Counted from the first letter of the stretch, positions 1,976 to 17,106 are shown. The stretch: 28,870 bases of DNA from Balneolales bacterium (GCA_035267005.1 DATFMK010000207.1:1-28870), one strand, 5' to 3'. Numbers and translations: made by a program. Notes: a model not told the origin generated them from the letters alone.

Positions 1976-3631
1976 ATGAAAAAAATAGTCACCGTTTCGC
2001 TTGTTACAGTTTTAATATCCATAACGTTTTCCACTTCTAAAGCTCAAAATCATCAAACATATGATGTCGTAGTTTACGGCGGCACTTCGGCAGGTGTAAT
2101 GGCGGCGGTGGCGGCTAAAAGAATGGGGGCATCTGTAATCCTCCTTAGCCCTGAAAAACGAATTGGTGGAATAACCAGTGGCGGATTAAGCTGGACCGAC
2201 ATCGGGGATCAAATTCATCATAGAACCATTGGCGGCTATACGTTGAATTTTTTTCATCGTGTTTATCAATATTACCGTCACAAAAAAGCATGGGATCAGG
2301 AAACCAGGGCTGATTATCGTAAGGAAATCGAAACTACGGATCACAAAATAATGGATAAAGACAGTCTGATGTGGACTTTCGAACCCCATGTGGCTCTTAA
2401 GATCTTCAATGATTTAATTCATGAAAACAACATCCCCGTACGGCTTAACAGATGGCTTGATCGTAAACATGGAATCAGGAAAGTTGATGGTCGCATCGTT
2501 TCCATCACCATGCAGAACGGCGAAACTTATAGTGGGAAAGTATTCATTGATGCAACCTACGAAGGAGACTTGATGGCTGTTGCCGGTGTGTCCTATACAG
2601 TTGGACGGGAAGATAACCGGGAATATCATGAAACGATTGATGGCGTGCAGCTTTCGCATCACCATCAGTTTCCGGATGGTATTGATCCGTATCGTATACC
2701 GGGCAATCCATCCAGTGGTCTTCTTTGGGGTATTAGCTCCGATTCCTTATTACCAGAAGGTCATGGTGATAAAAGAGTACAAGCCTATAATTTCAGGGTT
2801 TGCCTAACGGATTATAAAGAAAACATGATTCCCATAACCCGGCCAAAAAACTATGATTCATCCAGATACGATCTGCTCATCCGGCTGATCCATGCACAAC
2901 CCAATAAAAGGAAGCTAAGCGATTATTTTATATGGAGTCCATTGCCAAACAAGAAAACCGATATTAATAACAACGGGGGGTTTTCAACGGATATGATTGG
3001 TATGAGCAACGCATGGCCGGAGGGTAGTTATACAAAAAGACGCGATATTTTTAAGTCTCATATGGCTTATACAAAAGGTTTATTGTATTTCATGGGACAT
3101 GACCGGCGCGTTCCCGATACATTGCGGCACCAGATGCTCAGATGGGGTTACCCAAAAGACGAATATCAGAAATCCGATCATTTTACTCCCGAACTGTATG
3201 TCCGTGAGGGCAGGCGTATGATTGGTGATTATGTGATGACAGAGCATAATTGCAGGGGCTCAGTAACGGTAAATGATGGTATTGCAATGGCATATTATAA
3301 CATGGACAGTCACAATTGCGAACGAATCGTAGTGAACGGAATGGTGAAAAATGAAGGAAATGTAGAAGCCGGAATACCACACCCGTATCCTATCTCATAC
3401 CGCGCGATAATACCCAAAAAGAAAGAGTGCACTAACTTATTGGTACCTGTATCTCTGTCGGCCACGCATATCGCATATGGATCCATACGAATGGAGCCCG
3501 TATTCATGATGCTGGGCCAGTCTTCTGGTACTGCTGCCGCTCTCGCAGCAAAAAACAAAGTAGCCGTTCAGAAATTAGACTATCCGAAATTAAAGAAACA
3601 GCTATTGAAAGACGGTCAGATTCTGAAATAA
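1976..3631 (+). CDS. Secreted FAD-dependent oxidoreductase (FAD_oxidored / xanthan-lyase-associated type)
   Basis: Signal peptide; DVVVYGGTSAG dinucleotide motif; FIDATYEGDL; RVQAYNFRVCLT; SATHIAYGSIRMEPVFM. Confidence 0.88.
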   Translation: MKKIVTVSLVTVLISITFSTSKAQNHQTYDVVVYGGTSAGVMAAVAAKRMGASVILLSPEKRIGGITSGGLSWTDIGDQIHHRTIGGYTLNFFHRVYQYYRHKKAWDQETRADYRKEIETTDHKIMDKDSLMWTFEPHVALKIFNDLIHENNIPVRLNRWLDRKHGIRKVDGRIVSITMQNGETYSGKVFIDATYEGDLMAVAGVSYTVGREDNREYHETIDGVQLSHHHQFPDGIDPYRIPGNPSSGLLWGISSDSLLPEGHGDKRVQAYNFRVCLTDYKENMIPITRPKNYDSSRYDLLIRLIHAQPNKRKLSDYFIWSPLPNKKTDINNNGGFSTDMIGMSNAWPEGSYTKRRDIFKSHMAYTKGLLYFMGHDRRVPDTLRHQMLRWGYPKDEYQKSDHFTPELYVREGRRMIGDYVMTEHNCRGSVTVNDGIAMAYYNMDSHNCERIVVNGMVKNEGNVEAGIPHPYPISYRAIIPKKKECTNLLVPVSLSATHIAYGSIRMEPVFMMLGQSSGTAAALAAKNKVAVQKLDYPKLKKQLLKDGQILK

Positions 3632-3808
3632 CACTCCAACGTCATATCGTGCGATGTAAAATTCCTGGAGCATAAGAGAAAGACAATATTAGAATTATGC
3701 AACGGATTTGGCTAATTCAGCCCCCGGTTACATATATAAATTTTACGGAAACGGTCTGACATGGAATAGTGTTTATTGAGTTCTATTATTATCAATACTA
3801 TAATCACA

Positions 3809-5269
3809 ATGAAATCAATAAAAACTATTCTTGTAACCGGCAGTACCGGCTATATCGGAGGACGCATTGTTCCACACCTGCTTGATGCCGGGTATCATAT
3901 ACGCTGTCTTGTAAGAGATCCGGCCCGACTTCAGGGAAGAGCATGGTACGATCGTGTTGATAGTACAACAGGTGACGTGTTACAGCCTGAGACATTACCG
4001 GAGGCCGTGAAGAATGTAGATATTGCCTATTACCTCATTCACAGCCTTGCCGGTGGTACAGGTTTTCATGAAATTGATATTACAGCCGCGCAAAATTTTT
4101 CGAAAGCGGCAAAAGAAGCCGGGGTTCAGAGAATCATTTATCTGGGTGGACTCGGAAATCCTGATACGGATTTATCCCGGCATTTGCGATCCCGTCAACT
4201 TACAGGTGATGCACTCAGAATATCGGGTATCCCGGTTACGGAATTTCGTGCCGGTGTTATTGTGGGATCGGGAAGCCTGTCGTTTGAACTGATCAGGTAT
4301 CTCACAGAACGTATTCCTGTTATGATTTGTCCGCGTTGGGTCTATACAAAAATTCAACCGATCGCCGTACGGGATGTCATCGAATATCTGGTTGCGGCGA
4401 TTAATGTACCCGAAAGTTCGGATCATATTATTGAAATTGGAGGAGCTGACGTTATCACATACGGCGAGATGATGTCCGGCTACGCCAGGGCCCGTGGACT
4501 CAAACGAAAACTCATTCCGGTGCCTTTTTTAACACCCAGGTTATCATCGTATTGGATTCACTTAATGACCCCGGTTCCGGCAAATATCGCCAAACCATTG
4601 ATTGAAGGATTACGAAATGAGGTGATAGTCCGTGATGACAAGGCCCGCAGCTTATTTCCAAACATCCACCCCGTAAGTTATCAAACGGCCGTTAAGCTTG
4701 CCCTTCAAAAGTTGGAAGCCGGCTCTGTAGAAACAGCCTGGAGCGATGCGCTTGTCTCAAGCCAGGGTGAGAAAGAACCCGTTGTTTTAAAAACACATGA
4801 AGGGATGATCATCGAACATCGACAGAAGATCGTTGATGTTTCCCCGGAGAATGTTTTCCGTACATTCACGAGCCTCGGTGGCAAACGTGGATGGCTGTAT
4901 ATGAACTGGGCGTGGAAATTAAGGGGAATTATGGACCGGCTCATCGGCGGTGTGGGTATGCGGCGTGGTCGAAGGGATCCTTTGGATATACGAATAGGTG
5001 ATGCCCTGGATTTTTGGAGAGTGGAAGAAGTTATACCCAATAGAATGATCAGGCTCCGGGCCGAAATGAAGGTACCCGGACGGGCATGGCTGCAGTTCCA
5101 GGTTCTGTCCAAAAAAGACGGCCGGTCTGTTCTGTCCCAAACTGCTTTTTTTGCACCTAAAGGGCTTGCCGGCCTGTCATACTGGTATCTTCTTTATCCC
5201 ATCCATCGTCTTATTTTTAGCGGAATGATCCGGGAAGTGAAAAAAATGGCGGAAAAAGACAGACCATGA
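3809..5269 (+). CDS. NAD(P)-binding SDR-like oxidoreductase with C-terminal DUF2867 (YbjT-like)
   Basis: ILVTGSTGYIGG Rossmann motif; C-terminal GDALDFWRVE...LRAEMKVPGRAWL...YWY. ATG 3809 preferred over the track's TTG 3776. Confidence 0.88.
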   Translation: MKSIKTILVTGSTGYIGGRIVPHLLDAGYHIRCLVRDPARLQGRAWYDRVDSTTGDVLQPETLPEAVKNVDIAYYLIHSLAGGTGFHEIDITAAQNFSKAAKEAGVQRIIYLGGLGNPDTDLSRHLRSRQLTGDALRISGIPVTEFRAGVIVGSGSLSFELIRYLTERIPVMICPRWVYTKIQPIAVRDVIEYLVAAINVPESSDHIIEIGGADVITYGEMMSGYARARGLKRKLIPVPFLTPRLSSYWIHLMTPVPANIAKPLIEGLRNEVIVRDDKARSLFPNIHPVSYQTAVKLALQKLEAGSVETAWSDALVSSQGEKEPVVLKTHEGMIIEHRQKIVDVSPENVFRTFTSLGGKRGWLYMNWAWKLRGIMDRLIGGVGMRRGRRDPLDIRIGDALDFWRVEEVIPNRMIRLRAEMKVPGRAWLQFQVLSKKDGRSVLSQTAFFAPKGLAGLSYWYLLYPIHRLIFSGMIREVKKMAEKDRP

Positions 5270-5770
5270 AAATCTTCGTAACGGTGCTTTTTTAAAATCT
5301 GTATCTCACCATTTCGTGCACAAAATATCACCCTCCACAATCAACCTGATACACTCAATGTTGATATCCTTAAAGCATTCGATCATCGCCAAAAGATACG
5401 AAATTATCAAATGATGACATTGCGACTATTCTTTGGGCTGCCAGCGGTGTCAACCGTCCGGACGGTAAACGTACAGCCCCGGCCACTCACGGGATGCAGT
5501 ATAACAATATTTATGTTGCGGACTATGAAGGCAATTATTTTTATGATGCCATTAATAACAGGCTGGCGTTGAGAAATAAGGAAATGTCTAAAAATAAATT
5601 ATCCGTACAACATCATGTGGCACAATCTTCTCATGTTATTATCATTACGGCTGATCTGAACCGTGTTCCGGGATTGATGTCAAACCGGGAGGCCAAACTT
5701 AAATGGGCAAATGTAACTGCCGGAACGATCGCGCAAAATATTTACCTGATGTGTGCGGATTTGCATTCGT
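5266..5770 (+). pseudogene. SagB-type nitroreductase, frameshifted and 3'-truncated
   Basis: ATG overlaps the upstream stop (ATGA). Three frames together read MKIFVTVLF / CISPFRAQNITLHNQPDTLNVDILKAFDHRQKIRNY / LSNDDIATILWAASGVNRPDGKRTAPA...AGTIAQNIYLMCAD, then similarity stops. Confidence 0.8.
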
Positions 5771-5789
5771 TCGGAGTCAATATCTTTTA

Positions 5790-6592
5790 TTCTCAAATTC
5801 GAAAGTTCCCTACCCTTAAAAAGGCAGAATAGAATTACAGTAAAGGGACAAGAAGAACAAAATGGCACTTTAGAAATCCTACTACATCGTAAAGATATCA
5901 GAATTGAAATACGAAACGATAAATTTACATTTGAAAGAAGCGGATATCCTGCAAGTAATTTGAGTGAGGGTGAAAAGTCCGCAATTGCTTTTGCTTATTT
6001 TTTAACTGAACTAAAATCATTAGGAAATGATAATCCTCCAAAATTGCCAAATACAATAGTTTTTATTGACGACCCAATTTCTAGTTTGGATAGTAATCAT
6101 ATTTTTCAGGTTAGACTTTTGGGTAGAATAGATAAATCTACCAATGAGGCTAAACGTCCATTATTTTTCATTAAACGAAATGACGATAATAGTGCAATAA
6201 TTAAAAAATTACCAAAATCATTTAGTTCATACAAATCTGAATATATTGGACTATTTCACACCATTAAAGAATTGGATGAATTAGAAGATAAAGAAGATTA
6301 TCCTAATTTATTAATTCTACCAAATGCAGTTCGTAGGTTTCTTGAATTATCCACTTTAATGAAATATCCAAGTGATACATAAGTTGATAATTGAGTAAAA
6401 AAAGTTTTTAATCAGGATGATAAACCATTTTACAATACTAAATTACTACACTGGTTTTCACACCAAAATCAATTTGAAAAAGTACAACAACACGACGACA
6501 AAATATTACAAATAGAAGATGCTATAAAAGAATTAATGGAACATATTAAATCAAAGGATGAATTACATTTGAAAGGACTAAATGTAGAATAG
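5790..6592 (+). pseudogene. C-terminal fragment of an AAA_13 / RloC-like ABC-ATPase-HEPN protein
   Basis: NLSEGEKSAIAFAYF (ABC signature), IVFIDDPISSLDSNH (Walker B/D-loop), NAVRRFLE and KLLHWFSH (HEPN-like). No Walker A or N-terminus; in-frame stops at 6380-6382 and 6392-6394; final TAG at 6590-6592. 5' boundary approximate. Confidence 0.78.
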
Positions 6593-6608
6593 AGAAAAAA
6601 GTACGATT

Positions 6609-6740
6609 ACCTAACATTTTGTATAAGTAATGGCAGGTAATGTGTTAAATATCAAGGTTTTTAGGCCACTAAAACTGATTAACGGTTTGACAGGAAAGTA
6701 CCACGCAATCTGCCACTACTCATACAATTTACCTTTAGCA
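6609..6740 (+). repeat. attC-like imperfect palindrome A (132 bp)
   Basis: Left core ACCTAAC 17 bp after the stop codon. Arms TTGTATAAGTAATGGCAG / CTGCCACTACTCATACAA pair at 16 of 18 positions. Right core is TTTAGCA(GT) instead of GTT... Confidence 0.7.
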
Positions 6741-6768
6741 GTCACCCCAAAACACAACTATAAAATTT

Positions 6769-8727
6769 ATGCGCAAATCTGATACAAATAGAGTCGTTTT
6801 TTACTCAAAAGAAGATATGGCGGGCGGACATCAACTTCAAAAGGGTGAGCATATTTTAAGAGCCAAAACCAAAACTAGTTACACTGACATCAATGACATT
6901 CTAGAGCTTTATAACATAAAAAAATACATTGACAATGAGTTATTTTTAAAAGTTTGGTCTAATGAAGACATTCTAAGCTTTAAACAGAAAGTCATAGAAT
7001 ATGGAAAAATTGTCGGGAGATTTATGTCAAATATTAATGACAGCAATGCTGTTGACATATATGATAACACCCTTCATGACTATATTAATTCATTTTGGGA
7101 ATTAGTTAGCAATCAAAGTGTATTTAAGCGAATATCAAAAGACAATTTTAAAAACATTTTATTCCATGAACCTCACCTAATTTATACAATTCTAAATCAT
7201 AAGAATATCGTTGAATACTACAATAATGAAGTAAAAGATTTTTTATTGACATATTCTCAGTCTGCAGAAATATTACTTTCTGTTTACGAAGTGAAAGAAG
7301 AATTTGCAAAGAATAAGAGATTCATTCCCAAAAGCCTGACAATTGATGACAAGGAAGCCATAATCTCAAGTTATTTAGAATCGAATGATGTGAATTTGAA
7401 TTATGTCGGATTAATTCAAAACATAAGGAACAGAAATGACTTTAAAATTTCTGATAAAACACGTCTTAAAGCTAAGCGTTTACACAAAAGTGAAACGGAG
7501 AAATTTTTCTCAGAAAAAGGTGGAATGAAATATGGAGTTTCAATTAGTTTTCCAGAAAATCCGACAAAAATTAAAGATGGTTTTGTTGACGAAAATCTCT
7601 TGGCTCATTATTCGTACAGTTTAGACTTCATCAAACAAAACAACAACCCATATTTGTTATTTCAGAATTTCAAGTATTTATTCGAATATCTCGACAATCA
7701 AAACAGAGTAAATCTTGTAAGCAAAAGAAGTCAACTCGGTTTATTTGAAAGGATTATGGGTGTTCAATCCCAGAACGAATATAGAGGTGGAACGAGCTTT
7801 TCATTATCTGAAATGACATCTCAAAGTCAAATAATAGGATACAATAAAGTACTGAGTGAATTAGGTACTTCATTGGAAGATATTCTGCACTTTGTTTTTA
7901 CAATTGCATTTCAAGAAAAATTTTCGTTTGCCAAAAATGCAAGGTTTTCGATTCCTACAGCAACTTCATACTTTGAAAAAGTTAGACTTTTAGCACCTGA
8001 ATTTGAATCTGCATTAAAGCAATTTAAACTATTTGTTGAAGATGGAAGTATTGATTTTGAACTTTTACAAATATCATCTTCTCCATCAGCGATAAAGGAT
8101 ATCCCAAGTCTAAATCATAATAAATACATCTATTTTAATGAAGATAATGAAGAGATAGTAGGATGTTCTAATTTATTCTTCTCTGACCAAACTCTTCTAG
8201 AATATGTTGAACCATTCAAAGAAGAAAAGTATCATACATTCTTCAATTTATTAGCAAATGAAAAAGTAAAGTTTACTAATTATGAAGAGCATCAAAAACC
8301 ACGATTGAATTATCTTATAGAAAAAGGGTTTATCTCCATAGATACTGATGATTTTATCAACATCACAAATCTTGAAAGAGTTTTAATCTTAAAAGATTTG
8401 TACGATAATGAGGTAGGTTCATTCTATCATTATTCATCTGATTTTCAACAAGAAGTTCAGCGAATGAATGATGAAAACATTGTTGATTTTGAGATTTCGT
8501 TATTTTCAAAACCTGAACAAGCATATTTTAATTACTTCTTGAACAAGAGTGAGTTTACTAATGGTTTGGATTTAAGGAATAGTTACTTGCATGGGACTCA
8601 AGCAAACCCTGAAGAAATTCAAACACACGAGTATGCTTATTTTACATATTTAAAATTAATATTCTTAGCATTTTTGAAAATAGATGATGATTTAAACATT
8701 CACAATGCGACAAGAAATAAAACATAA
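6769..8727 (+). CDS. Uncharacterised 652-aa protein with C-terminal HEPN-like RxxxxH motif (putative RNase / defence effector)
   Basis: Intact AT-rich ORF. GLDLRNSYLHGTQ (R603-H608) followed by a hydrophobic helix, resembling DUF4209-type HEPN domains. No signal peptide. Confidence 0.7.
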   Translation: MRKSDTNRVVFYSKEDMAGGHQLQKGEHILRAKTKTSYTDINDILELYNIKKYIDNELFLKVWSNEDILSFKQKVIEYGKIVGRFMSNINDSNAVDIYDNTLHDYINSFWELVSNQSVFKRISKDNFKNILFHEPHLIYTILNHKNIVEYYNNEVKDFLLTYSQSAEILLSVYEVKEEFAKNKRFIPKSLTIDDKEAIISSYLESNDVNLNYVGLIQNIRNRNDFKISDKTRLKAKRLHKSETEKFFSEKGGMKYGVSISFPENPTKIKDGFVDENLLAHYSYSLDFIKQNNNPYLLFQNFKYLFEYLDNQNRVNLVSKRSQLGLFERIMGVQSQNEYRGGTSFSLSEMTSQSQIIGYNKVLSELGTSLEDILHFVFTIAFQEKFSFAKNARFSIPTATSYFEKVRLLAPEFESALKQFKLFVEDGSIDFELLQISSSPSAIKDIPSLNHNKYIYFNEDNEEIVGCSNLFFSDQTLLEYVEPFKEEKYHTFFNLLANEKVKFTNYEEHQKPRLNYLIEKGFISIDTDDFINITNLERVLILKDLYDNEVGSFYHYSSDFQQEVQRMNDENIVDFEISLFSKPEQAYFNYFLNKSEFTNGLDLRNSYLHGTQANPEEIQTHEYAYFTYLKLIFLAFLKIDDDLNIHNATRNKT

Positions 8728-8736
8728 AAGGCAAAC

Positions 8737-8803
8737 TACTAACAATGTGAATAGTGCATAGCACCCTGCGGGATGCTACGACACCATACACGGAACGTTA
8801 TTC
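8737..8803 (+). repeat. attC-like imperfect palindrome B (67 bp)
   Basis: TACTAAC 10 bp after the stop codon. Arms GTGAATAGTGCATAGCA / TGCTACGACACCATACAC with bulges around loop CCCTGCGGGA. Right core GTTATTC. Confidence 0.7.
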
Positions 8804-8946
8804 ACAATAGCTCCAAAAAAGACCAACGCTCAAAAGATTATATTTGATTTTCTACCAGCGTACAGCAAACACATTTGCAAGTAACTTTTCCCACCCGCAC
8901 TTTCGTGTTGATAACGTTCCTGAGATTTATCTATGAAAAGGGAATG

Positions 8947-8954
8947 TAAATTTG
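8947..8954 (+). promoter_or_regulatory. Bacteroidota-type -7 promoter box TAAATTTG
   Basis: Matches TAnnTTTG, 16 bp upstream of the XRE start. Confidence 0.55.
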
Positions 8955-8958
8955 TATT

Positions 8959-8979
8959 TTTGGACAAAATATGTCCAAA
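8959..8979. promoter_or_regulatory. Putative operator TTTGGACA-N5-TGTCCAAA
   Basis: Perfect 8-bp inverted repeat lying between the -7 box and the start of the XRE gene, overlapping its ATG. Confidence 0.6.
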
Positions 8980-9306
8980 CAAATTGAATCCAAACAAATG
9001 CTGTCAATAGGAGAACAAATAAGAAAGCTGCGAGAGGACCAGGGGTTGCCTTTACGTAAAGTTGCGGCTGAACTGGACATTGACCAATCTATCTTAAGCA
9101 AGATAGAAAGAGGTGAACGGAAAGCTTCCAAGGAACAGATCATTCATATTGCCAGAATTTTCAAAGTGGACGAGAAAGAGTTACTCATTAATTACTTGAG
9201 CGACCGGGTGCTGTACGATCTGAAAGATGAAGATTTGGCAACAGATGCGTTAAAAGTGGCGGAAAAGAAAATTAAATACCTGATCAAAAGCCAAAATGGA
9301 AAGTAG
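8971..9306 (+). CDS. XRE-family HTH regulator (R-M controller-like)
   Basis: IGEQIRKLREDQGLPLRKVAAELDIDQSILSKIERGER; overlaps the MTase start by 11 bp. Confidence 0.9.
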   Translation: MSKQIESKQMLSIGEQIRKLREDQGLPLRKVAAELDIDQSILSKIERGERKASKEQIIHIARIFKVDEKELLINYLSDRVLYDLKDEDLATDALKVAEKKIKYLIKSQNGK

Positions 9307-10873
9307 AAAATCCATACGACCCATAGAACAAGAGTTACCAAATCATTTTGCTGACCGGTTAGGCGTTGCTTACGCTTCTTTGGTTAGTCAGCAACACAAA
9401 AAGGAAAACGGACAGTTTTTTACTCCGGTTGAAATCGCATCCTTAATGGCTTCCTTCTCTGATTTTGCAGGAAATTCTGTCCGAATTCTTGACCCAGGAT
9501 GTGGTTCCGCGGTTTTATCATGTACTTTGATTGAACACCTCGTCAATTCGAATAAAAAACTAAAAACCATTGAATTGGTGGCTTATGAAACGGATGCAGA
9601 ACTCATTCCTGTTTCAAAACGTTCTCTCGCCTATTTAGAAAAATGGGGAAACCAACAGGGAATCAATCTCAAAACGAAACTTTATACGCATGACTTCATC
9701 CTTCATAATTCCGATTGTTTCAAAGAAACAGACGATTTGTTTTCCAAACCGGTTGAGCAGTTTGATATTGTCATTTCAAACCCTCCTTATTTCAAACTAC
9801 CTATTGATGACAAAAGAGCAAAAGTTGCAAAAGTCATAGTGAATGGTCACCCGAATATTTATGCCATTTTCATGGCTTTATCGGCAAAACTGCTCAAAGA
9901 AAATGGCGAGTTAATTTTCATTACGCCACGCAGCTATGCGGCAGGCGGATATTTCAAAATCTTCCGGGAATATTTCTTCAAAATCATTGATTTGGATAAG
10001 GTGCATCTTTTTGTTTCCCGAAAAGACACTTTTAGCAGAGATAAAGTATTGCAGGAAACGGTTATTATTAAAGGAACCAAAAGATCCAAGCCCGAACCAC
10101 AGGTAACCATTTCTTCATCAAGTGGATTGAAAGACTTAAGAAGCCCGTTGATAAAGATATTCCCGAAAAAAGACATCATAGATCTGAATTCCAATGAGAA
10201 AATTCTCTATCTGCCAACAACCGACTATGATGAAGCTGTGTTGGAAATTTTCAAAAACTGGACAGGTAATTTGGCTAAATACAATATCAAGATTTCAACT
10301 GGTCCTGTAGTAGCTTTCCGGGCAAGGAATTACCTAAGGGAGAATTTTGAGAACGGAACGGTGCAATTAGCCCCACTTTTCTGGCTGCATAATGTGAAAC
10401 AGATGATATTGGAATGGCCAATAGTTAAGCCGAAAAAAGAGCAATACATAAACATTGAGGAAAAGGCCATGCCGCTCCTCATTCCCAACAAAAACTATAT
10501 CCTTTTGAGACGTTTCAGCAGCAAAGATGATAAAAATAGGTTGATTGCTGCTCCATACTTCTGCAATTTCATGAAATCGGATTATATCGGAGTTGAAAAC
10601 AAGGTGAATTACATCTATCGTCCAAATGGACACCTTGAACGAAATGAACTTATTGGGCTTTGTGCATTACTTAACAGCAACTTATTCGACGCGTATTTCA
10701 GGATTTTTAACGGCAATGTTAATGTGAGTGCCACAGAGTTAAGGGAGATGTCACTACCTCCACTGGATACCATTCTGGAAATTGGCGACACAATTATCCT
10801 GGCCAACGATTTTTCTGTGGAAAATATAAACCGAATTGTAAACGAATATTTTGAACCGACATACATTACATGA
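9296..10873 (+). CDS. Type II N6-adenine DNA methyltransferase, BsuBI/PstI type
   Basis: GQFFTP, motif I ILDPGCGS, motif IV NPPY, C-terminal FRIFNGNVNVSATELREM. Confidence 0.92.
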   Translation: MESRKSIRPIEQELPNHFADRLGVAYASLVSQQHKKENGQFFTPVEIASLMASFSDFAGNSVRILDPGCGSAVLSCTLIEHLVNSNKKLKTIELVAYETDAELIPVSKRSLAYLEKWGNQQGINLKTKLYTHDFILHNSDCFKETDDLFSKPVEQFDIVISNPPYFKLPIDDKRAKVAKVIVNGHPNIYAIFMALSAKLLKENGELIFITPRSYAAGGYFKIFREYFFKIIDLDKVHLFVSRKDTFSRDKVLQETVIIKGTKRSKPEPQVTISSSSGLKDLRSPLIKIFPKKDIIDLNSNEKILYLPTTDYDEAVLEIFKNWTGNLAKYNIKISTGPVVAFRARNYLRENFENGTVQLAPLFWLHNVKQMILEWPIVKPKKEQYINIEEKAMPLLIPNKNYILLRRFSSKDDKNRLIAAPYFCNFMKSDYIGVENKVNYIYRPNGHLERNELIGLCALLNSNLFDAYFRIFNGNVNVSATELREMSLPPLDTILEIGDTIILANDFSVENINRIVNEYFEPTYIT

Positions 10874-11829
10874 GTAAAATTGAAGAAGCAAAACAGATAT
10901 TGGAAGCGTTGGGACTTCCAAAAAGGCAGCAAAATGACCGTTCCGCATTGACGTTGCTTGCCTTATGTAACCTGAGAGAAAAGGACAAATGGAGCAAGGC
11001 CAAAGCTGTAAGTATGTCTGTTGTTGGCAATAAAGAAAACGCTAAATATGAGGGCGTGATGCGTTTTATTGCGCAGTTTTACAACAAACCATATGCAGAA
11101 AATTCACGGGAAACATTTCGCAGACAAACGCTTCATCAATTTGTTCAGGCTGGAATTGTAAACCACAATCCGGAAAACCCTGAATTACCAACTAACAGCA
11201 AGGACAATCATTATCGCATTTCACCGGAAGCATTGAAGGTCATCAAAACTTTCAACTCAAGAAACTGGAATAAAGAGATCAAGTACTTCAAAGAAAATGT
11301 GGGATTGTTAAGAGACAAATATCACAAGAAAAGAGAATTACGCAAAATTCCATTGAAGTTGAAAGACGGCACAGAACTTACTTTTTCTCCGGGCAAGCAC
11401 AATGAAGTTCAGATTGCCATTATTGAAGAATTTTCTCCACGCTTTGCTCCCGGAAGTGATTTACTGTATGTTGGAGATACCGCCAAGAAAGATCTATACA
11501 TGGACAAAAAGGGTATGGGAAAACTGGGAATTCCTATTGATGAGCACAGCAAGTTACCAGATGTTGTTCTGTACGACAATAAGAAAAAATGGCTGTTCCT
11601 GATTGAAGCGGTTACTTCACATGGTCCTGTTTCTCCGAAACGGATAGTGGAAATGGAAAAGATGTTGAAAAACTGTAAAGCAGGTAAAATATACGTGACA
11701 GCTTTCCCGGACTTCAAGGAGTTCAAACGCCATACTTCTGACATTGCCTGGGAAACAGAAGTTTGGGTAGTCATATTCCCGGATCACATGATCCATTTTA
11801 ATGGGAATAAATTTATGGGACCGAGATAG
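10870..11829 (+). CDS. BsuBI/PstI-family type II restriction endonuclease
   Basis: ALTLLAL, ENSRETFRRQTLHQF, SPGKHN, KLPDVV...LIEAVTSHGP, IAWETEVW; ATGA overlap with the MTase. Confidence 0.92.
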   Translation: MSKIEEAKQILEALGLPKRQQNDRSALTLLALCNLREKDKWSKAKAVSMSVVGNKENAKYEGVMRFIAQFYNKPYAENSRETFRRQTLHQFVQAGIVNHNPENPELPTNSKDNHYRISPEALKVIKTFNSRNWNKEIKYFKENVGLLRDKYHKKRELRKIPLKLKDGTELTFSPGKHNEVQIAIIEEFSPRFAPGSDLLYVGDTAKKDLYMDKKGMGKLGIPIDEHSKLPDVVLYDNKKKWLFLIEAVTSHGPVSPKRIVEMEKMLKNCKAGKIYVTAFPDFKEFKRHTSDIAWETEVWVVIFPDHMIHFNGNKFMGPR

Positions 11830-12047
11830 AAACCTTCACAAAAACAAATGGCGATCCTGCTAATTGCCTACAATTTTACCGAGTAATAACCCAGCCTAAA
11901 AAAATCATATGTGTATACCCGAGAATTGATGCTATTTTAATTATTTTATCTCGAACTCACGTTAATATTATTAATCTGCCAGCAATTGATACTTTGAAAG
12001 TAGAAATTGATAGTATTGAAAATGCAAAAGTGTTTAACAATATTTAA
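11826..12047 (+). pseudogene. Start-less open frame, possible 3' remnant of a lost gene
   Basis: About 70 sense codons ending ...IDTLKVEIDSIENAKVFNNI*, with a GTTTAAC core overlapping its last codons. No recognisable motif. Confidence 0.3.
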
Positions 12048-12152
12048 TGTCTACCCTGTTTTGCATATGGGCTTACTCGTTACTGTGTGCGCCATAGAGC
12101 GAAACTACCAACACACTGTATTGAGGAAGACAGAAAAAGTAAAACGTTAATA
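12032..12152 (+). repeat. Degenerate attC-like site C
   Basis: GTTTAAC-AAT left core and AAC-GTTAATA right core, in the same context as site B (followed by CCAACGC...CATTTGCAA). Internal arms pair poorly. Confidence 0.35.
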
Positions 12153-12266
12153 TGAAATGCCAACGCACAAAGAAGCACATTTGCAAGCCCTGACACACAA
12201 GCTGATGCTCCAATGCTCCATCTTGCAAAAGAGTTTTTTTCTTGCCTACACGCCACCGAAATTTGA

Positions 12267-12274
12267 TACATTTG
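12267..12274 (+). promoter_or_regulatory. Bacteroidota-type -7 promoter box TACATTTG
   Basis: Matches TAnnTTTG, 23 bp upstream of the SWIM gene start. Confidence 0.5.
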
Positions 12275-12297
12275 TGATTTAATAATAGTTTAACTAA

Positions 12298-13998
12298 ATG
12301 CAAATTCCACTAAACCAGTTTGAGCTGTACATTGACGAAACTATCCTGAAACGCGGCCTGCAATATTTTAAAAACGGGCATGTGCATGAACCTATTGAAA
12401 TAAGCCTGGGCATCTATGAAGCTATTGTTGAGGGCTCTCAAGATTATACGGTGCAACTGACCCTTAAAAATGGGGTAATAACCGAATATATTTGCGATTG
12501 CCCCTACGATTTTGGACCTGTGTGCAAACATGTGGCTGCCGTGATTTTTTACCTGCAACAGGATGAACTGGAATTGAATAAGAAGACTAAAAAAACAAAG
12601 GCTGGTCGAACACCTAAAGCTGCAAAACGAAAAACCATAGCCCAACAGGTTGACGAATTGCTCGAAAAAGCCACCCACGAAGAGCTCAAACAATTTATAA
12701 AGGAAAATACTACACAAAATATCCCGTTCAGGAATTTATTTTTATCCTCGTTTGCACAGCATAATTCCGACGAATCAAAGGAGCTTTATACAAAGCAGGT
12801 AAAATCAATCCTTAAAATGGCTTCCGACAAGCATGGTTTTATAGACTGGTCGGCTTCAAGACTTGTAAGTAATACGGTTTACAACCTTTTAGAATCGGCC
12901 CAAAAACAAATTGAGAATCAAAATTTCAAAAGTGCCTTTTATATCTGCACAGCCGTAATGGAACAGATGGCCAAAGCTCTTCAATATGCAGATGACAGTT
13001 ATGGAAATATTGGCGATTGTGTAGATGCTGCTTATGAAATGTTGCATACTATTGCACTAGAACAAACTACAGAAGAAATCAGGAAGTTAATCATTGAATA
13101 TTGTTTCACAGCTTTTGATAAACAAATATACTCGGATTGGGATTGGCATATTGGTGTTTTACGGCTTGCTTCCCTTCTTTTAAAAACAGAAGACGAAACG
13201 GAACGTATTTTTGACCAAATTGAAAAGGCCCAAAGGTCGGACTACGAGAGAGAAGAAGCCCAAAGTATTAAGTACGAAATTTTATTAAAAACCAAAGGGG
13301 AAAATGCTGCTGAAAAATATCTTGAACAAAATATTACCAATTCGAATTTAAGGCGGGAAGCCATAAAAAAATCACTGGAGAAGAAGAATTACGAGAAAGC
13401 TATTTCGATAGCAAAAGATGGGATAAATTATGATAAAAAAGACAAGCCTGGGTTAGTAATAGAATGGTATTATTGGCTACTTAAAATTGCACAAGCCCAG
13501 AACAATACTGATAAAATAATCGAATATGCCCGTTTTTTATTTATCAACAATTTCAGGCATGAACAGGATTATTATGAAATATTAAAGCAACATGTGAAAC
13601 CCGAAAAATGGGTTGCGTTTTTAGAAGATGTTATACAAGATATTACTGCAAAAAAACGTTGGCTCGATACTGGTTTGATAGCAGATATTTTTATTAAAGA
13701 AGAATGGTGGGACAGACTTTTAGAATTGGTTAAAAAATCTCCCAATTTATACACCATTGACCATTACGAAAAATATCTTTCTAAGAAATATCCAAATGAG
13801 ATAGTGGAATTATATGCCGATGGCATTACAGGATATTTAAAAAACAGCGTGGGGCGAAAACATTACCAAAATGCGTGCAGGTATATTAGAAAGATTATAA
13901 AACTGGGTGCAAGAGATAAAGCAAATGAAATTATTTCCTATTTAAGGACTGAATATCCTAAAAGGAAAGCATTAATGGATGAGCTGAACAAGGTATAA
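12298..13998 (+). CDS. SWIM zinc-finger protein with long helical (TPR-like) C-terminus
   Basis: CDCPYDFGPVCKH (CxC...CxH) preceded by KRGLQYF...YEAIVEGSQDYTV. Confidence 0.85.
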   Translation: MQIPLNQFELYIDETILKRGLQYFKNGHVHEPIEISLGIYEAIVEGSQDYTVQLTLKNGVITEYICDCPYDFGPVCKHVAAVIFYLQQDELELNKKTKKTKAGRTPKAAKRKTIAQQVDELLEKATHEELKQFIKENTTQNIPFRNLFLSSFAQHNSDESKELYTKQVKSILKMASDKHGFIDWSASRLVSNTVYNLLESAQKQIENQNFKSAFYICTAVMEQMAKALQYADDSYGNIGDCVDAAYEMLHTIALEQTTEEIRKLIIEYCFTAFDKQIYSDWDWHIGVLRLASLLLKTEDETERIFDQIEKAQRSDYEREEAQSIKYEILLKTKGENAAEKYLEQNITNSNLRREAIKKSLEKKNYEKAISIAKDGINYDKKDKPGLVIEWYYWLLKIAQAQNNTDKIIEYARFLFINNFRHEQDYYEILKQHVKPEKWVAFLEDVIQDITAKKRWLDTGLIADIFIKEEWWDRLLELVKKSPNLYTIDHYEKYLSKKYPNEIVELYADGITGYLKNSVGRKHYQNACRYIRKIIKLGARDKANEIISYLRTEYPKRKALMDELNKV

Positions 13999-14158
13999 GT
14001 CGCTAATACTTATATCCGCGCATTTGGTGGCGCATTTGCAATTCCTAAGAGCTAACGCTAAAGCAAAAATTGCAAAAGAGACCCAAAACCAACACACGGC
14101 AGACAGAAACGATATTGCAAATTGATATGAAAAATGATGGAAAATAAACAACGCCAGC

Positions 14159-14289
14159 CCATAACATTGTATTAATGTAATAGCGAGTTAGAGCTTAAAT
14201 AATTAATGAAGTGCCTAAAATAAATATTGCATTATAGCTGAAACTTAGATGTAGAAATTCGCTACTTCTTATATACGAGACCGTTACGC
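14159..14289 (+). repeat. attC-like imperfect palindrome D (131 bp)
   Basis: Left core CCATAAC; arms GTATTAATGTAATAGCGAGT / ATTCGCTACTTCTTATATAC; right core GTTACGC. Same length and layout as site A. Confidence 0.68.
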
Positions 14290-14348
14290 ACCCCAGCAAC
14301 AAGCACATTAATGGGACTAACCCTAACGCTTTCGGGCATGAATCCGAC

Positions 14349-14428
14349 ACCTATCTTGTGCGTAAGGGTTTAATTAAGTTGACAATCGTTGTTCGTATCT
14401 TAGCCCCTTATGCGCAGGATCGTTATAA
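14349..14428 (+). repeat. attC-like imperfect palindrome E (80 bp)
   Basis: Left core ACCTATC (ACCTAAC with one change); arms TGTGCGTAAGGG / CCCTTATGCGCA pair at 10 of 12; right core GTTATAA. Confidence 0.55.
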
Positions 14429-14575
14429 ACCCGGTTATAATCCGTCATAAAATTCATTCTAATAGGATAAAAAATAGTAAATTACAAGAAAGTTACTGAG
14501 TTAATCGGATAATTAACAGCCACAAACATATTCTACAATCTTTGACACATCTATCCAATCACAGAGAGTACCATT

Positions 14576-15124
14576 ATGAAAACGAGACAATCTATTACAT
14601 CAATCCTGCTCATTTTTTGTTTTGTTATTGCTTCAAGCATGACTGTGGATGCGCAAAAACGCCGTGAACGGCCATCACGGTATAAAAATATGCCTCGCAT
14701 CGGAAACAGGGTTACGCATGTCCCGCGTAGTTCTTATAGAATCCCTTATAAGAAAACCATCTATCATTATCATTCTGGTATATTTTATCGGCCTTATAAT
14801 CGCTTTTTTATTATTGTAAACGCACCTATCGGTATCAGGATACGTACACTTCCGCTCCATCATTACAGAGTGATCATCGGAACACATCTTTATTATTATG
14901 ATTATGGAAATTTCTACGTTCAAAAAGCCAATTATTATGAGTCGGTAGTACCACCATTGGGAGCCCGTGTTGAAGAACTTCCCGCTGGTTATTATAAGAT
15001 TGTTATAGAAAGCAAAACATATTACGAGCTCAATGGAGTGTACTACAAAGCGGTTGTGGATGATAAAGGTGAAGTCTGGTACGAGGTCGTGGGAATCAAT
15101 CATGATATGATAAATGATCAATAA
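14576..15124 (+). CDS. Secreted DUF6515-like protein
   Basis: Signal peptide; Tyr-rich repeats YHYHSGIFY...APIG / YYYDYGNFY...PPLGARVEELP. Confidence 0.7.
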   Translation: MKTRQSITSILLIFCFVIASSMTVDAQKRRERPSRYKNMPRIGNRVTHVPRSSYRIPYKKTIYHYHSGIFYRPYNRFFIIVNAPIGIRIRTLPLHHYRVIIGTHLYYYDYGNFYVQKANYYESVVPPLGARVEELPAGYYKIVIESKTYYELNGVYYKAVVDDKGEVWYEVVGINHDMINDQ

Positions 15125-16521: not shown

Positions 16522-16983
16522 ATGAACGAGACAACGCGTATTGATAACCTATTGTTACAAACAATGAATGGGGACGCATGGCACGGCCCTGCAGTTTTTG
16601 AGCTTTTAAGAGACATCCCGGCAGAAAAAGCTGCTTTTCATCCGGTTGAGGATGTTCACAGTATTTGGGAATTAGTAGAGCACATGACCACGTGGCAAAA
16701 AGTGATCATCAGGCGTATGAACGACGAAGATTATGAACCTTCAGATGAGGAAAACTTTCCGGATGTGACTGCTGATTCGTCCGATACCTGGGAAAAGGCG
16801 GTTGAAGAACTATACCGGACCTATCAGGCTTTAAGAGAAAAAATCATACATTTTCCGGATGAAAAACTCGGGGAAGCTGTACCCGGGAAACATTATACTC
16901 ACTATATACAGTTACACGGTTTAATTCAACATAATTTATACCACGCCGGACAAATCGCTATCCTGAAGAAGAATATAATGTAA
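16522..16983 (+). CDS. DinB/YfiT-like four-helix protein
   Basis: AWHGPA, HSIWELVEHM, HNLYHAGQI (three-His metal site). Confidence 0.88.
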   Translation: MNETTRIDNLLLQTMNGDAWHGPAVFELLRDIPAEKAAFHPVEDVHSIWELVEHMTTWQKVIIRRMNDEDYEPSDEENFPDVTADSSDTWEKAVEELYRTYQALREKIIHFPDEKLGEAVPGKHYTHYIQLHGLIQHNLYHAGQIAILKKNIM

Positions 16984-16988
16984 CATCT

Positions 16989-17037
16989 CAGTTAGCAGTT
17001 AGCAGTTAGCAGTTAGCAGTTAGCAGTTAGCAGTTAG
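16989..17037. repeat. Perfect heptamer tandem repeat (CAGTTAG)x7
   Basis: Counted directly; begins 5 bp after the DinB stop. Confidence 0.97.
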
Positions 17038-17106
17038 CAAAGATGTCGTGCCTGATACCCGCTGTCAAAGGGAAAGTGACTTTCTACCGGTCTTAATAAG
17101 TTATGA

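Follow-up and report, generated by a model that had tools for sequence, protein, structure and literature searches.

What is the 652-residue protein encoded at positions 6769-8727 of a 28,870-bp contig of a Balneolales bacterium (GCA_035267005.1, DATFMK010000207.1), and does it represent a new anti-phage effector? The whole contig (C207), referred to here as the window, was analysed; it belongs to a fragmented assembly of 1035 contigs with about 90% completeness. A previous interpretation made from the DNA alone (the sequence-only reading) had proposed an uncharacterised, stand-alone protein in which a large sensor region is fused to a C-terminal HEPN RNase, and had termed it a candidate new anti-phage effector. 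The present analysis reveals that the gene is a full-length member of the already catalogued PDC-S56 family and not a new discovery. Its product is likely to belong to the HEPN superfamily, and we lean towards the view that it is a self-contained, single-protein candidate anti-phage effector with a HEPN-type, metal-independent RNase part.

6769-8727, + strand: PDC-S56-family gene, 652 aa, open frame with the stop codon included

Family membership of the 652-aa protein

The open reading frame was re-checked and is intact, as previously described. The gene is present in one copy in its own genome, and its GC content is 0.295 versus 0.369 for the window. Scans of Pfam (E up to 0.01) and NCBIfam assigned no family to the protein, in agreement with the earlier remark that no domain is recognisable in its N-terminal part. 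In contrast to these empty scans, the PADLOC-DB v2 model PDLC05039 (PDC-S56) matches with an E-value of 4e-244 and 810 bits, residues 1-648 being aligned to profile positions 1-644 of 649, and a second PDC-S56 model, PDLC05038, matches at E 9.5e-23. The PDC-S56 models alone match the protein in the PADLOC scan, and no Pfam or PADLOC model of the Abi families (AbiD/F Abi_2, AbiJ Abi_C and others) was matched. The protein and the family are alike in length and architecture, with an end-to-end match to the hidden Markov model and no structural difference. The check for an existing name in PADLOC thus returns one, and the label of "new candidate" is wrong because the database already lists the family; the term "uncharacterised" stands for the missing Pfam and NCBIfam domains and falls for the family, which PADLOC-DB already holds as PDC-S56.

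The PDC systems comprise 145 "phage defence candidates", all untested, which were selected by "guilt-by-embedding", i.e., their members are embedded in BREX, DISARM or type I restriction-modification (R-M) loci (Payne et al. 2024, bioRxiv 10.1101/2024.01.29.577857). The PDC-S56 entry is a catalogue listing of untested function, and in the library of papers and supplements searched, the family is nowhere mentioned by name and no published domain analysis was found. To this listing the present analysis adds a structural ranking headed by AbiA, a layout of split HEPN and winged-helix domains, a conserved [ED]x3[KR] pair and conserved cassette ends. An exhaustive HMMER search yielded 1458 clusters at 50% identity, nearly all of 630-670 aa and colinear with the query, and the sequenced members are named from Bacteroidota, Campylobacterota, Pseudomonadota and Bacillota.

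Conservation of the RNxxxH motif

8575-8592, + strand: R603-N604-S-Y-L-H608, predicted catalytic Rx4H motif, by conservation and by alignment with RNxxxHG of DUF4209 HEPN proteins
8005-8019, + strand: E413-x3-K417, candidate HEPN Ex3[KR] motif, by conservation, within helix 401-425

The segment LRNSYLHG occupies residues 602-609, with the R603 codon at 8575-8577 and the H608 codon at 8590-8592, exactly where the sequence-only reading had placed it. Rx4H occurs once in the protein, and the chance expectation from the protein's composition is 0.51 occurrences of Rx4H and 0.045 of RNx3H. With about 0.5 expected, Rx4H in a single sequence is not beyond chance; the significance of the motif stems from its conservation across homologues and not from its presence in one sequence.

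Conservation was assessed in an alignment of 141 full-length representatives at 31-54% identity. N604, H608 and E583 are invariant (100%), followed by R603 (99%) and Y606 (96%), while N592, N598, Y624 and K637 are each kept in at least 96% of the sequences. An acidic residue occupies position 413 without exception (E 64%, D 36%), and 95% of the sequences carry a basic one at position 417 (K 85%, R 10%). Further invariant residues are found outside the motif region, namely P187, S472 within FSDQ, and the KYxY stretch at 452-455. The sequence-only reading had staked its case on the conservation of R603 and H608 among homologues, and on this point it stands decisively, the motif being kept at 99-100%. 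The RNxxxH motif is the best-conserved feature of this large family and its signature.

The published motif criteria for HEPN domains are Rx4-6H with a polar residue (N, D or H) after the R, and a second conserved acidic residue that lies upstream and close to the first motif, typically as Ex3[KR] (Anantharaman et al. 2013, PMC3710099). R603, N604 and H608 conform to the first of these, and [ED]413-x3-[KR]417 fits the second as a candidate.

Predicted fold and the extent of the HEPN domain

6769-7773, + strand: N-terminal region, residues 1-335, putative sensor or regulatory region; mostly alpha-helical from 1 to about 250, with a small beta-sheet at 256-283 and sheet plus helices over 256-335
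7792-8043, + strand: proposed first half of a split HEPN domain, long helices 342-364, 369-385 and 401-425, from the secondary structure of the models and structural alignments
8116-8496, + strand: winged-helix insert of residues about 450-576, an alpha/beta region in the model that probably comprises two domains in tandem
8497-8724, + strand: proposed second HEPN half, residues 577-652, with helix 581-591 (including invariant E583), short helix 602-607, a loop and long helix 617-651, from the models

AlphaFold2 models were built with a 65-sequence alignment and are confident, with a predicted local distance difference test score (pLDDT) of 92.2 and a predicted TM score of 0.86 for the whole protein, and a pLDDT of 92.9 for residues 330-652. 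The HEPN fold is defined by a four-helix core of two alpha-hairpins, an insert between helices 2 and 3, and the motif at the end of helix 3; its biochemical hallmark is metal-independent RNase activity that leaves 2',3'-cyclic phosphate ends. In the model, the RNxxxH motif is carried by the short helix 602-607.

When the C-terminal third was used as a structural query, HEPN domains were the best matches: five HEPN-containing structures are among the top 22 of 48,161 chains, each aligned over most of its HEPN domain, and the C-terminal HEPN domain of AbiA (Lactococcus lactis, PDB 8oz7) ranks first. The HEPN and Roquin alignments cover model residues from about 20-57 to about 314-323. Other searches were less productive. 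Foldseek against the PDB gave no match at E <= 0.001 for the whole or the C-terminal model, phmmer and profile searches against PDB sequences gave chance-level matches only, and in a second structural alignment the Foldseek candidates that came back were all winged-helix proteins, apart from Roquin and a designed helical filament. The AlphaFold models of Swiss-Prot contain no reviewed HEPN protein among the matches, only weak ones to the N-terminal region of the phenylalanyl-tRNA synthetase (PheRS) alpha subunit, and shape searches of the ESM Atlas gave only unnamed family members together with weak PheRS-alpha and helix-turn-helix (HTH) entries. For residues 1-335, the Atlas feature search gave no usable match and no known fold was assigned. 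HEPN RNases commonly work as dimers; a homodimer prediction with two copies of residues 330-652 (score 0.01, mark 0.42) is neutral on dimerisation.

Taken with the motif, these comparisons make membership of the HEPN superfamily likely. In the models, the domain seems to be built from helices of about 342-425 and 577-652, with the winged-helix domains inserted between them. The earlier notion of a C-terminal HEPN RNase is therefore upheld in that HEPN domains are the best structural matches of the C-terminal third, and amended in that the domain is not just the C-terminal tail. As the HEPN helices would then start at about residue 342, the unexplained "sensor" comprises some 330 residues, and not the 580 or so that had been supposed.

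A weak resemblance was seen between residues of about 397-588 and the N-terminal region of PheRS alpha subunits of the archaeal/eukaryotic type (Foldseek E 0.017-0.07, about a dozen entries; TM 0.28-0.29 for the Atlas entries of this type). In PheRS alpha, this region is a set of winged-helix folds that contact tRNA. On the models, the likeness of the insert may be taken as a lead for a tRNA target and nothing more.

Comparison with known HEPN families and systems

One of the closest known systems is DUF4209, a C6orf70-type HEPN family (PF13910) noted in R-M-related operons (Anantharaman et al. 2013, PMC3710099). A Foldseek search of AlphaFold DB clusters retrieved fragments of the PDC-S56 family and, after these, proteins of DUF4209 (E 5.5e-5 and 0.019) and one of DUF4145 (E 0.027). 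When 65 family members were compared with Pfam at relaxed thresholds, DUF4209 appeared in 10 and HEPN_RiboL-PSP in three, all sub-threshold. Bacterial DUF4209 proteins of the same phylum, which is probably Bacteroidota as they are named from Chlorobi and Alistipes, have about 590-620 aa and an RNxxxH about 45 residues before the C-terminus; DUF4209 shares with PDC-S56 its size, a G-x-[DN]-L-R-N-x3-H-G (with N in DUF4209) near the C-terminus and the vicinity of R-M operons. Profile alignment with hhalign pairs G-l-D-L-R-N-k-Y-x-H-G-T with the DUF4209 G-x-N-L-R-N-x-l-x-H-G-L. The alignment is weak with seven DUF4209 sequences (P 3e-4, probability 40%), falls to P 0.004-0.023 (probability 2-9%) and the motif region only with 16, and is confined to about 50-130 columns. 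The invariant QIE-x3-R motif of DUF4209 has no clear PDC-S56 counterpart at the aligned position, the protein matches neither PF13910 (the gathering score of 22.3 bits is not reached) nor PF24098, and PF13910 is matched nowhere in its own genome. Filing the protein under DUF4209 was dropped, the profile-profile alignment being of low probability and limited to the motif region.

Like PDC-S56, PrrC and RloC are large regulatory proteins that end in an Rx4H HEPN-type nuclease and are associated with R-M loci; PDC-S56, too, might conceivably target tRNA, given its PheRS-alpha-like winged-helix insert. Unlike PDC-S56, they possess an N-terminal ABC/AAA_13 NTPase, whereas the 652-aa protein has no AAA_13, PrrC or PDC-S06 match, and the PrrC-like fragment in the window is a separate, broken neighbouring gene and not part of the protein. 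The HEPN-ROQ module of Roquin (PDB 4qik, 4qil and 4z31) is eukaryotic, its structural scores are weak and the likeness does not establish homology; Roquin is known as an RNA-binding regulator rather than an RNase. Taranis and Esos, single-gene HEPN defences of integron cassettes, likewise consist of one HEPN-like gene carried as a cassette among toxin-antitoxin (TA) and R-M cassettes (Darracq et al. 2024, bioRxiv 10.1101/2024.07.02.601686). They differ in being short Vibrio cassettes of other families, and the integron nature of PDC-S56 is inferred from inverted ends and hairpins, with no array-linked integrase.

Distribution and genomic contexts

The distribution of the gene is patchy and horizontal. 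Sampling 400 other genomes of the phylum turned up the gene in one, and the genomes sampled from its own family or order all lack it, yet Campylobacterota, Flavobacterium, Marinilabilia, Halarcobacter and Saprospiraceae encode proteins of 71-85% identity. Such high identity in distant carriers, despite rarity in the phylum, indicates recent horizontal spread. The gene is absent from 50,697 phage records and occurs in seven of 72,556 plasmids.

Fourteen gene contexts were examined, this window included. Seven of them have genes of TA, R-M or other defence types no more than a few kb away:

This window: the type II R-M operon and the disrupted PrrC-like gene
L002: TA and R-M cassettes in an array (ParE, Zeta, PIN_3, UPF0175/DUF3368)
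L005: PIN_3 and HigBA
L015: SNF2 and PLD genes, judged defence-like solely from their domains
L028: TIR protein
L030: type I R-M
L031: Schlafen/AlbA ATPase, in an element resembling an integrative and conjugative element

Two contexts contain mobile-element genes only (IS1 in L014, integrase plus excisionase in L027), and in four the gene is alone among ordinary genes (L003/L004, the nif cluster of L016, L026 and L032). L017, with its contig end beside an SSB gene, is uninformative. No neighbour or partner recurs across the 14 contexts, and neighbours differ in all of them, as expected of a single-gene system with no obligate partner; the adjacent antitoxin gene that would mark a type II toxin is conserved in none. 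Because no neighbour recurs, the gene is truly stand-alone, as the sequence-only reading had it.

Two of these loci deserve description. In L016 (GCA_965188145.1), a 76%-identical PDC-S56 gene (8001-9959) lies alone inside a nitrogen-fixation cluster (radical SAM/NifB-like, Oxidored_nitro, NifU, NifW and P-II), with no mobility or defence genes within 8 kb. In L030, a type I R-M operon (3449-10445; hsdR, hsdS and hsdM, the last two separated by an unannotated gene of 398 aa) adjoins the PDC-S56 gene and a 165-aa gene of unknown function.

Conserved ends of the unit and a probable cassette-type mobility

6734-6747, + strand: conserved 5' end of the mobile unit, TTTAGCAGTCACCC in the window and GTTAGCAGTCACCC elsewhere, from flank comparison
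8730-8743, + strand: conserved 3' end of the unit, GGCAAACTACTAAC, which repeats the 5' end in inverted orientation, from flank comparison
8736-8815, - strand: imperfect attC-like hairpin after the gene; single-stranded DNA fold of -13.2 kcal/mol, z -3.5, with 0 of 200 shuffles folding as well
6603-6745, - strand: imperfect, weak attC-like hairpin with an 18-bp stem before the gene, beginning ACCTAAC; single-stranded DNA fold of -15.1 kcal/mol, z -1.5

The 13-14 bases before the gene are identical in L002, L014 and L017, with the homology limit falling between G and TTAGCAGTCACC(C), and read TTGGCAGTCACC in L030 and L032; the 5' core in the window reads TTTAGC. Directly after the stop codon, L002, L014 and L017 (the last cut at the contig end) carry GGGCGAACTGCTAAC, and variants of this 3' end are seen in L015, L016, L031 and L003. 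Outside both conserved ends, the DNA is unrelated between genomes. Each end is an inverted repeat of the other, and the pair looks like the inverse-core and core boxes of an integron attC site, for which the criterion is an inverse core RYYYAAC and a core GTTRRRY that pair and bound a promoterless single gene.

In Flavobacterium sp. CYK-55 (GCA_018413465.1; L002, 1-21956), the gene is part of a one-strand array of about 25 small genes and at least 16 cassettes, whose cargo includes ParE, Zeta toxin, PIN_3, UPF0175/DUF3368, a HindVP R-M system, an acetyltransferase and PDC-S56. Between the cassettes lie 16 or more copies of a repeat, each of about 150 nt, with ..GCTAAC at its start and GTTAGC.. 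at its end. No integron integrase above the cut-off was found in that genome. The Balneolales genome contains the C-terminal half of an integron-type integrase (TIGR02249, 266.3 bits versus a cut-off of 265) at positions 2-523 (L018) of C814, a separate 2-kb contig with the fragment at its start; its linkage to the window is beyond the reach of the fragmented assembly. Since its ends are conserved, attC-like inverted repeats, an integron-type cassette is probably the best explanation of the gene's mobility. A transposon bounded by terminal inverted repeats, with a transposase of its own, was set aside as less probable: the protein has no transposase-like domain and the L002 gene lies in a regular array of attC-like repeats.

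Two repeats were noted in passing. Downstream of PDC-S56 in L002, a 467-aa gene (12197-13600) with no Pfam match on record contains seven tandem repeats of 150 nt (50 aa). In the window, about seven tandem heptamers AGTTAGC (GTTAGCA) at 16990-17040 directly follow a DinB-family gene (16522-16983), and the repeated heptamer has the same sequence as the core in the conserved 5' end of the PDC-S56 cassette-like unit.

Neighbourhood in the window

5753-6592, + strand: left neighbour, AAA_13/PrrC-RloC-like ATPase remnant (PF13166 positions 484-547 of 713; PDC-S06 and PrrC models), N-terminally truncated, the first 480 or so profile positions being gone
8971-11829, + strand: right neighbour, type II R-M operon with a C-protein (8971-9306), an N6-adenine methyltransferase (9296-10873) and a BsuBI/PstI-type restriction endonuclease (10870-11829)

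The gene indeed lies between an RloC-like remnant and an R-M system, as had been read from the sequence. The remnant contains a frame change at 6382/6395, and its PrrC-type matches fall in 5753-6382. A nitroreductase/SagB-like frame (5374-5832) runs into it, so that at the left edge of the low-GC block one broken gene directly adjoins another. To the right, the PDC-S56 gene ends 244 bp before the C-protein gene. A perfect 19-bp palindrome, TTGGACAAAATATGTCCAA, at 8960-8978 overlaps the start codon (8971) of this HTH controller gene and is likely to be the C-box operator of the R-M operon. Next after the operon, on the same strand and in the same lower-GC block, comes a gene (12298-13998) for a 566-aa protein with a SWIM zinc finger, a weak DUF6880 match and no PADLOC match.

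Neither the 387 bp upstream nor the 244 bp downstream of the PDC-S56 gene contains a conserved small reading frame. A generic repeat search of 5200-14600 found no strong repeat family, the promoter and terminator scan gave background level, and no tRNA gene marks the island.

Proposed function and alternative explanations

From these features we infer an RNase activity, a mechanism of activation, an RNA target and a defence phenotype, as follows. R603, N604 and H608 would form the active-site motif, probably aided by E583 and by E413-x3-K417, and the HEPN part would cleave RNA without metal. Winged-helix domains would interrupt the HEPN helices and probably bind the nucleic-acid substrate, and the N-terminal helical region of about 330 residues probably detects infection or, until infection occurs, holds the nuclease inactive. 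Once activated, the protein would cut host and/or phage RNA, tRNA being a candidate target, and the cleavage would arrest growth and abort the infection. The gene itself would move from one distant bacterium to another without companions, in a small cassette whose inverted ends are conserved. A bolder version, to which we assign a low probability, takes the protein as a new architectural class: a HEPN core split by tandem winged-helix domains (Roquin-like in topology and like the PheRS-alpha N-terminus) that bring tRNA or structured RNA into place for cutting. It would be a functional analogue of PrrC/RloC without the ATPase, carried on an integron-type cassette that crosses phyla and can land at non-canonical sites. 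Such landing would explain the solo copies in housekeeping operons.

The RNxYxH residues may instead be an active or binding site of another kind, in a novel enzyme or nucleic-acid-binding factor whose C-terminus is only superficially HEPN-like. This is unlikely in view of the five HEPN-containing structures among the top 22 chains of the structural search and of the motif itself, which in its N after the R, its upstream acidic-x3-basic pair and its place before the last long helix fits the published definition (PMC3710099), and whose context G-x-[DN]-L-R-N-x3-H-G is common to DUF4209. Granted a HEPN domain, a protein with winged-helix RNA binding, catalytically competent or not, could serve the host in regulation or RNA processing, in a Roquin-like manner, rather than in immunity. 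We consider such a role highly improbable: the distribution is extremely patchy, the gene has crossed between phyla and is low in GC, and the invariant catalytic-type residues argue for an enzyme under selection.

A HEPN-type RNase toxin that is mainly selfish, stabilising its cassette array or mobile element by addiction or post-segregational killing rather than defending against phages, would agree with the TA-rich arrays of L002 and L005, with the cassette-like conserved ends and with solo insertions in housekeeping regions. It is nonetheless improbable, since none of the 14 contexts has an adjacent conserved antitoxin gene, a multi-domain protein of 652 aa is unlike the classic TA toxins, and the family was picked up by its embedding in BREX, DISARM or type I R-M loci. 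The remaining proposal, from the sequence-only reading, is that the protein and the type II R-M system next to it work together, the protein serving as a backup. Physical adjacency speaks for this proposal, but it can hardly be credited: the operon has its own controller gene, the hairpin and the conserved end of the unit lie between it and the PDC-S56 gene, and in the 13 other contexts the neighbours differ or are not defence-related. Because neighbours vary from context to context, we see no functional tie to this operon.

Implications

For the window, the practical outcome is an annotation of the gene as a defence candidate that is catalogued but untested. The proposed layout of split HEPN and winged-helix domains points to concrete residues (R603, N604, H608, E583 and E413/K417) and to the insert, and the conserved cassette ends provide a handle on the movement of the gene between phyla. 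If the proposed role is confirmed, one "guilt-by-embedding" candidate would be validated, and PDC-S56 would be added to the known bacterial immune repertoire as a widespread single-gene RNase effector.
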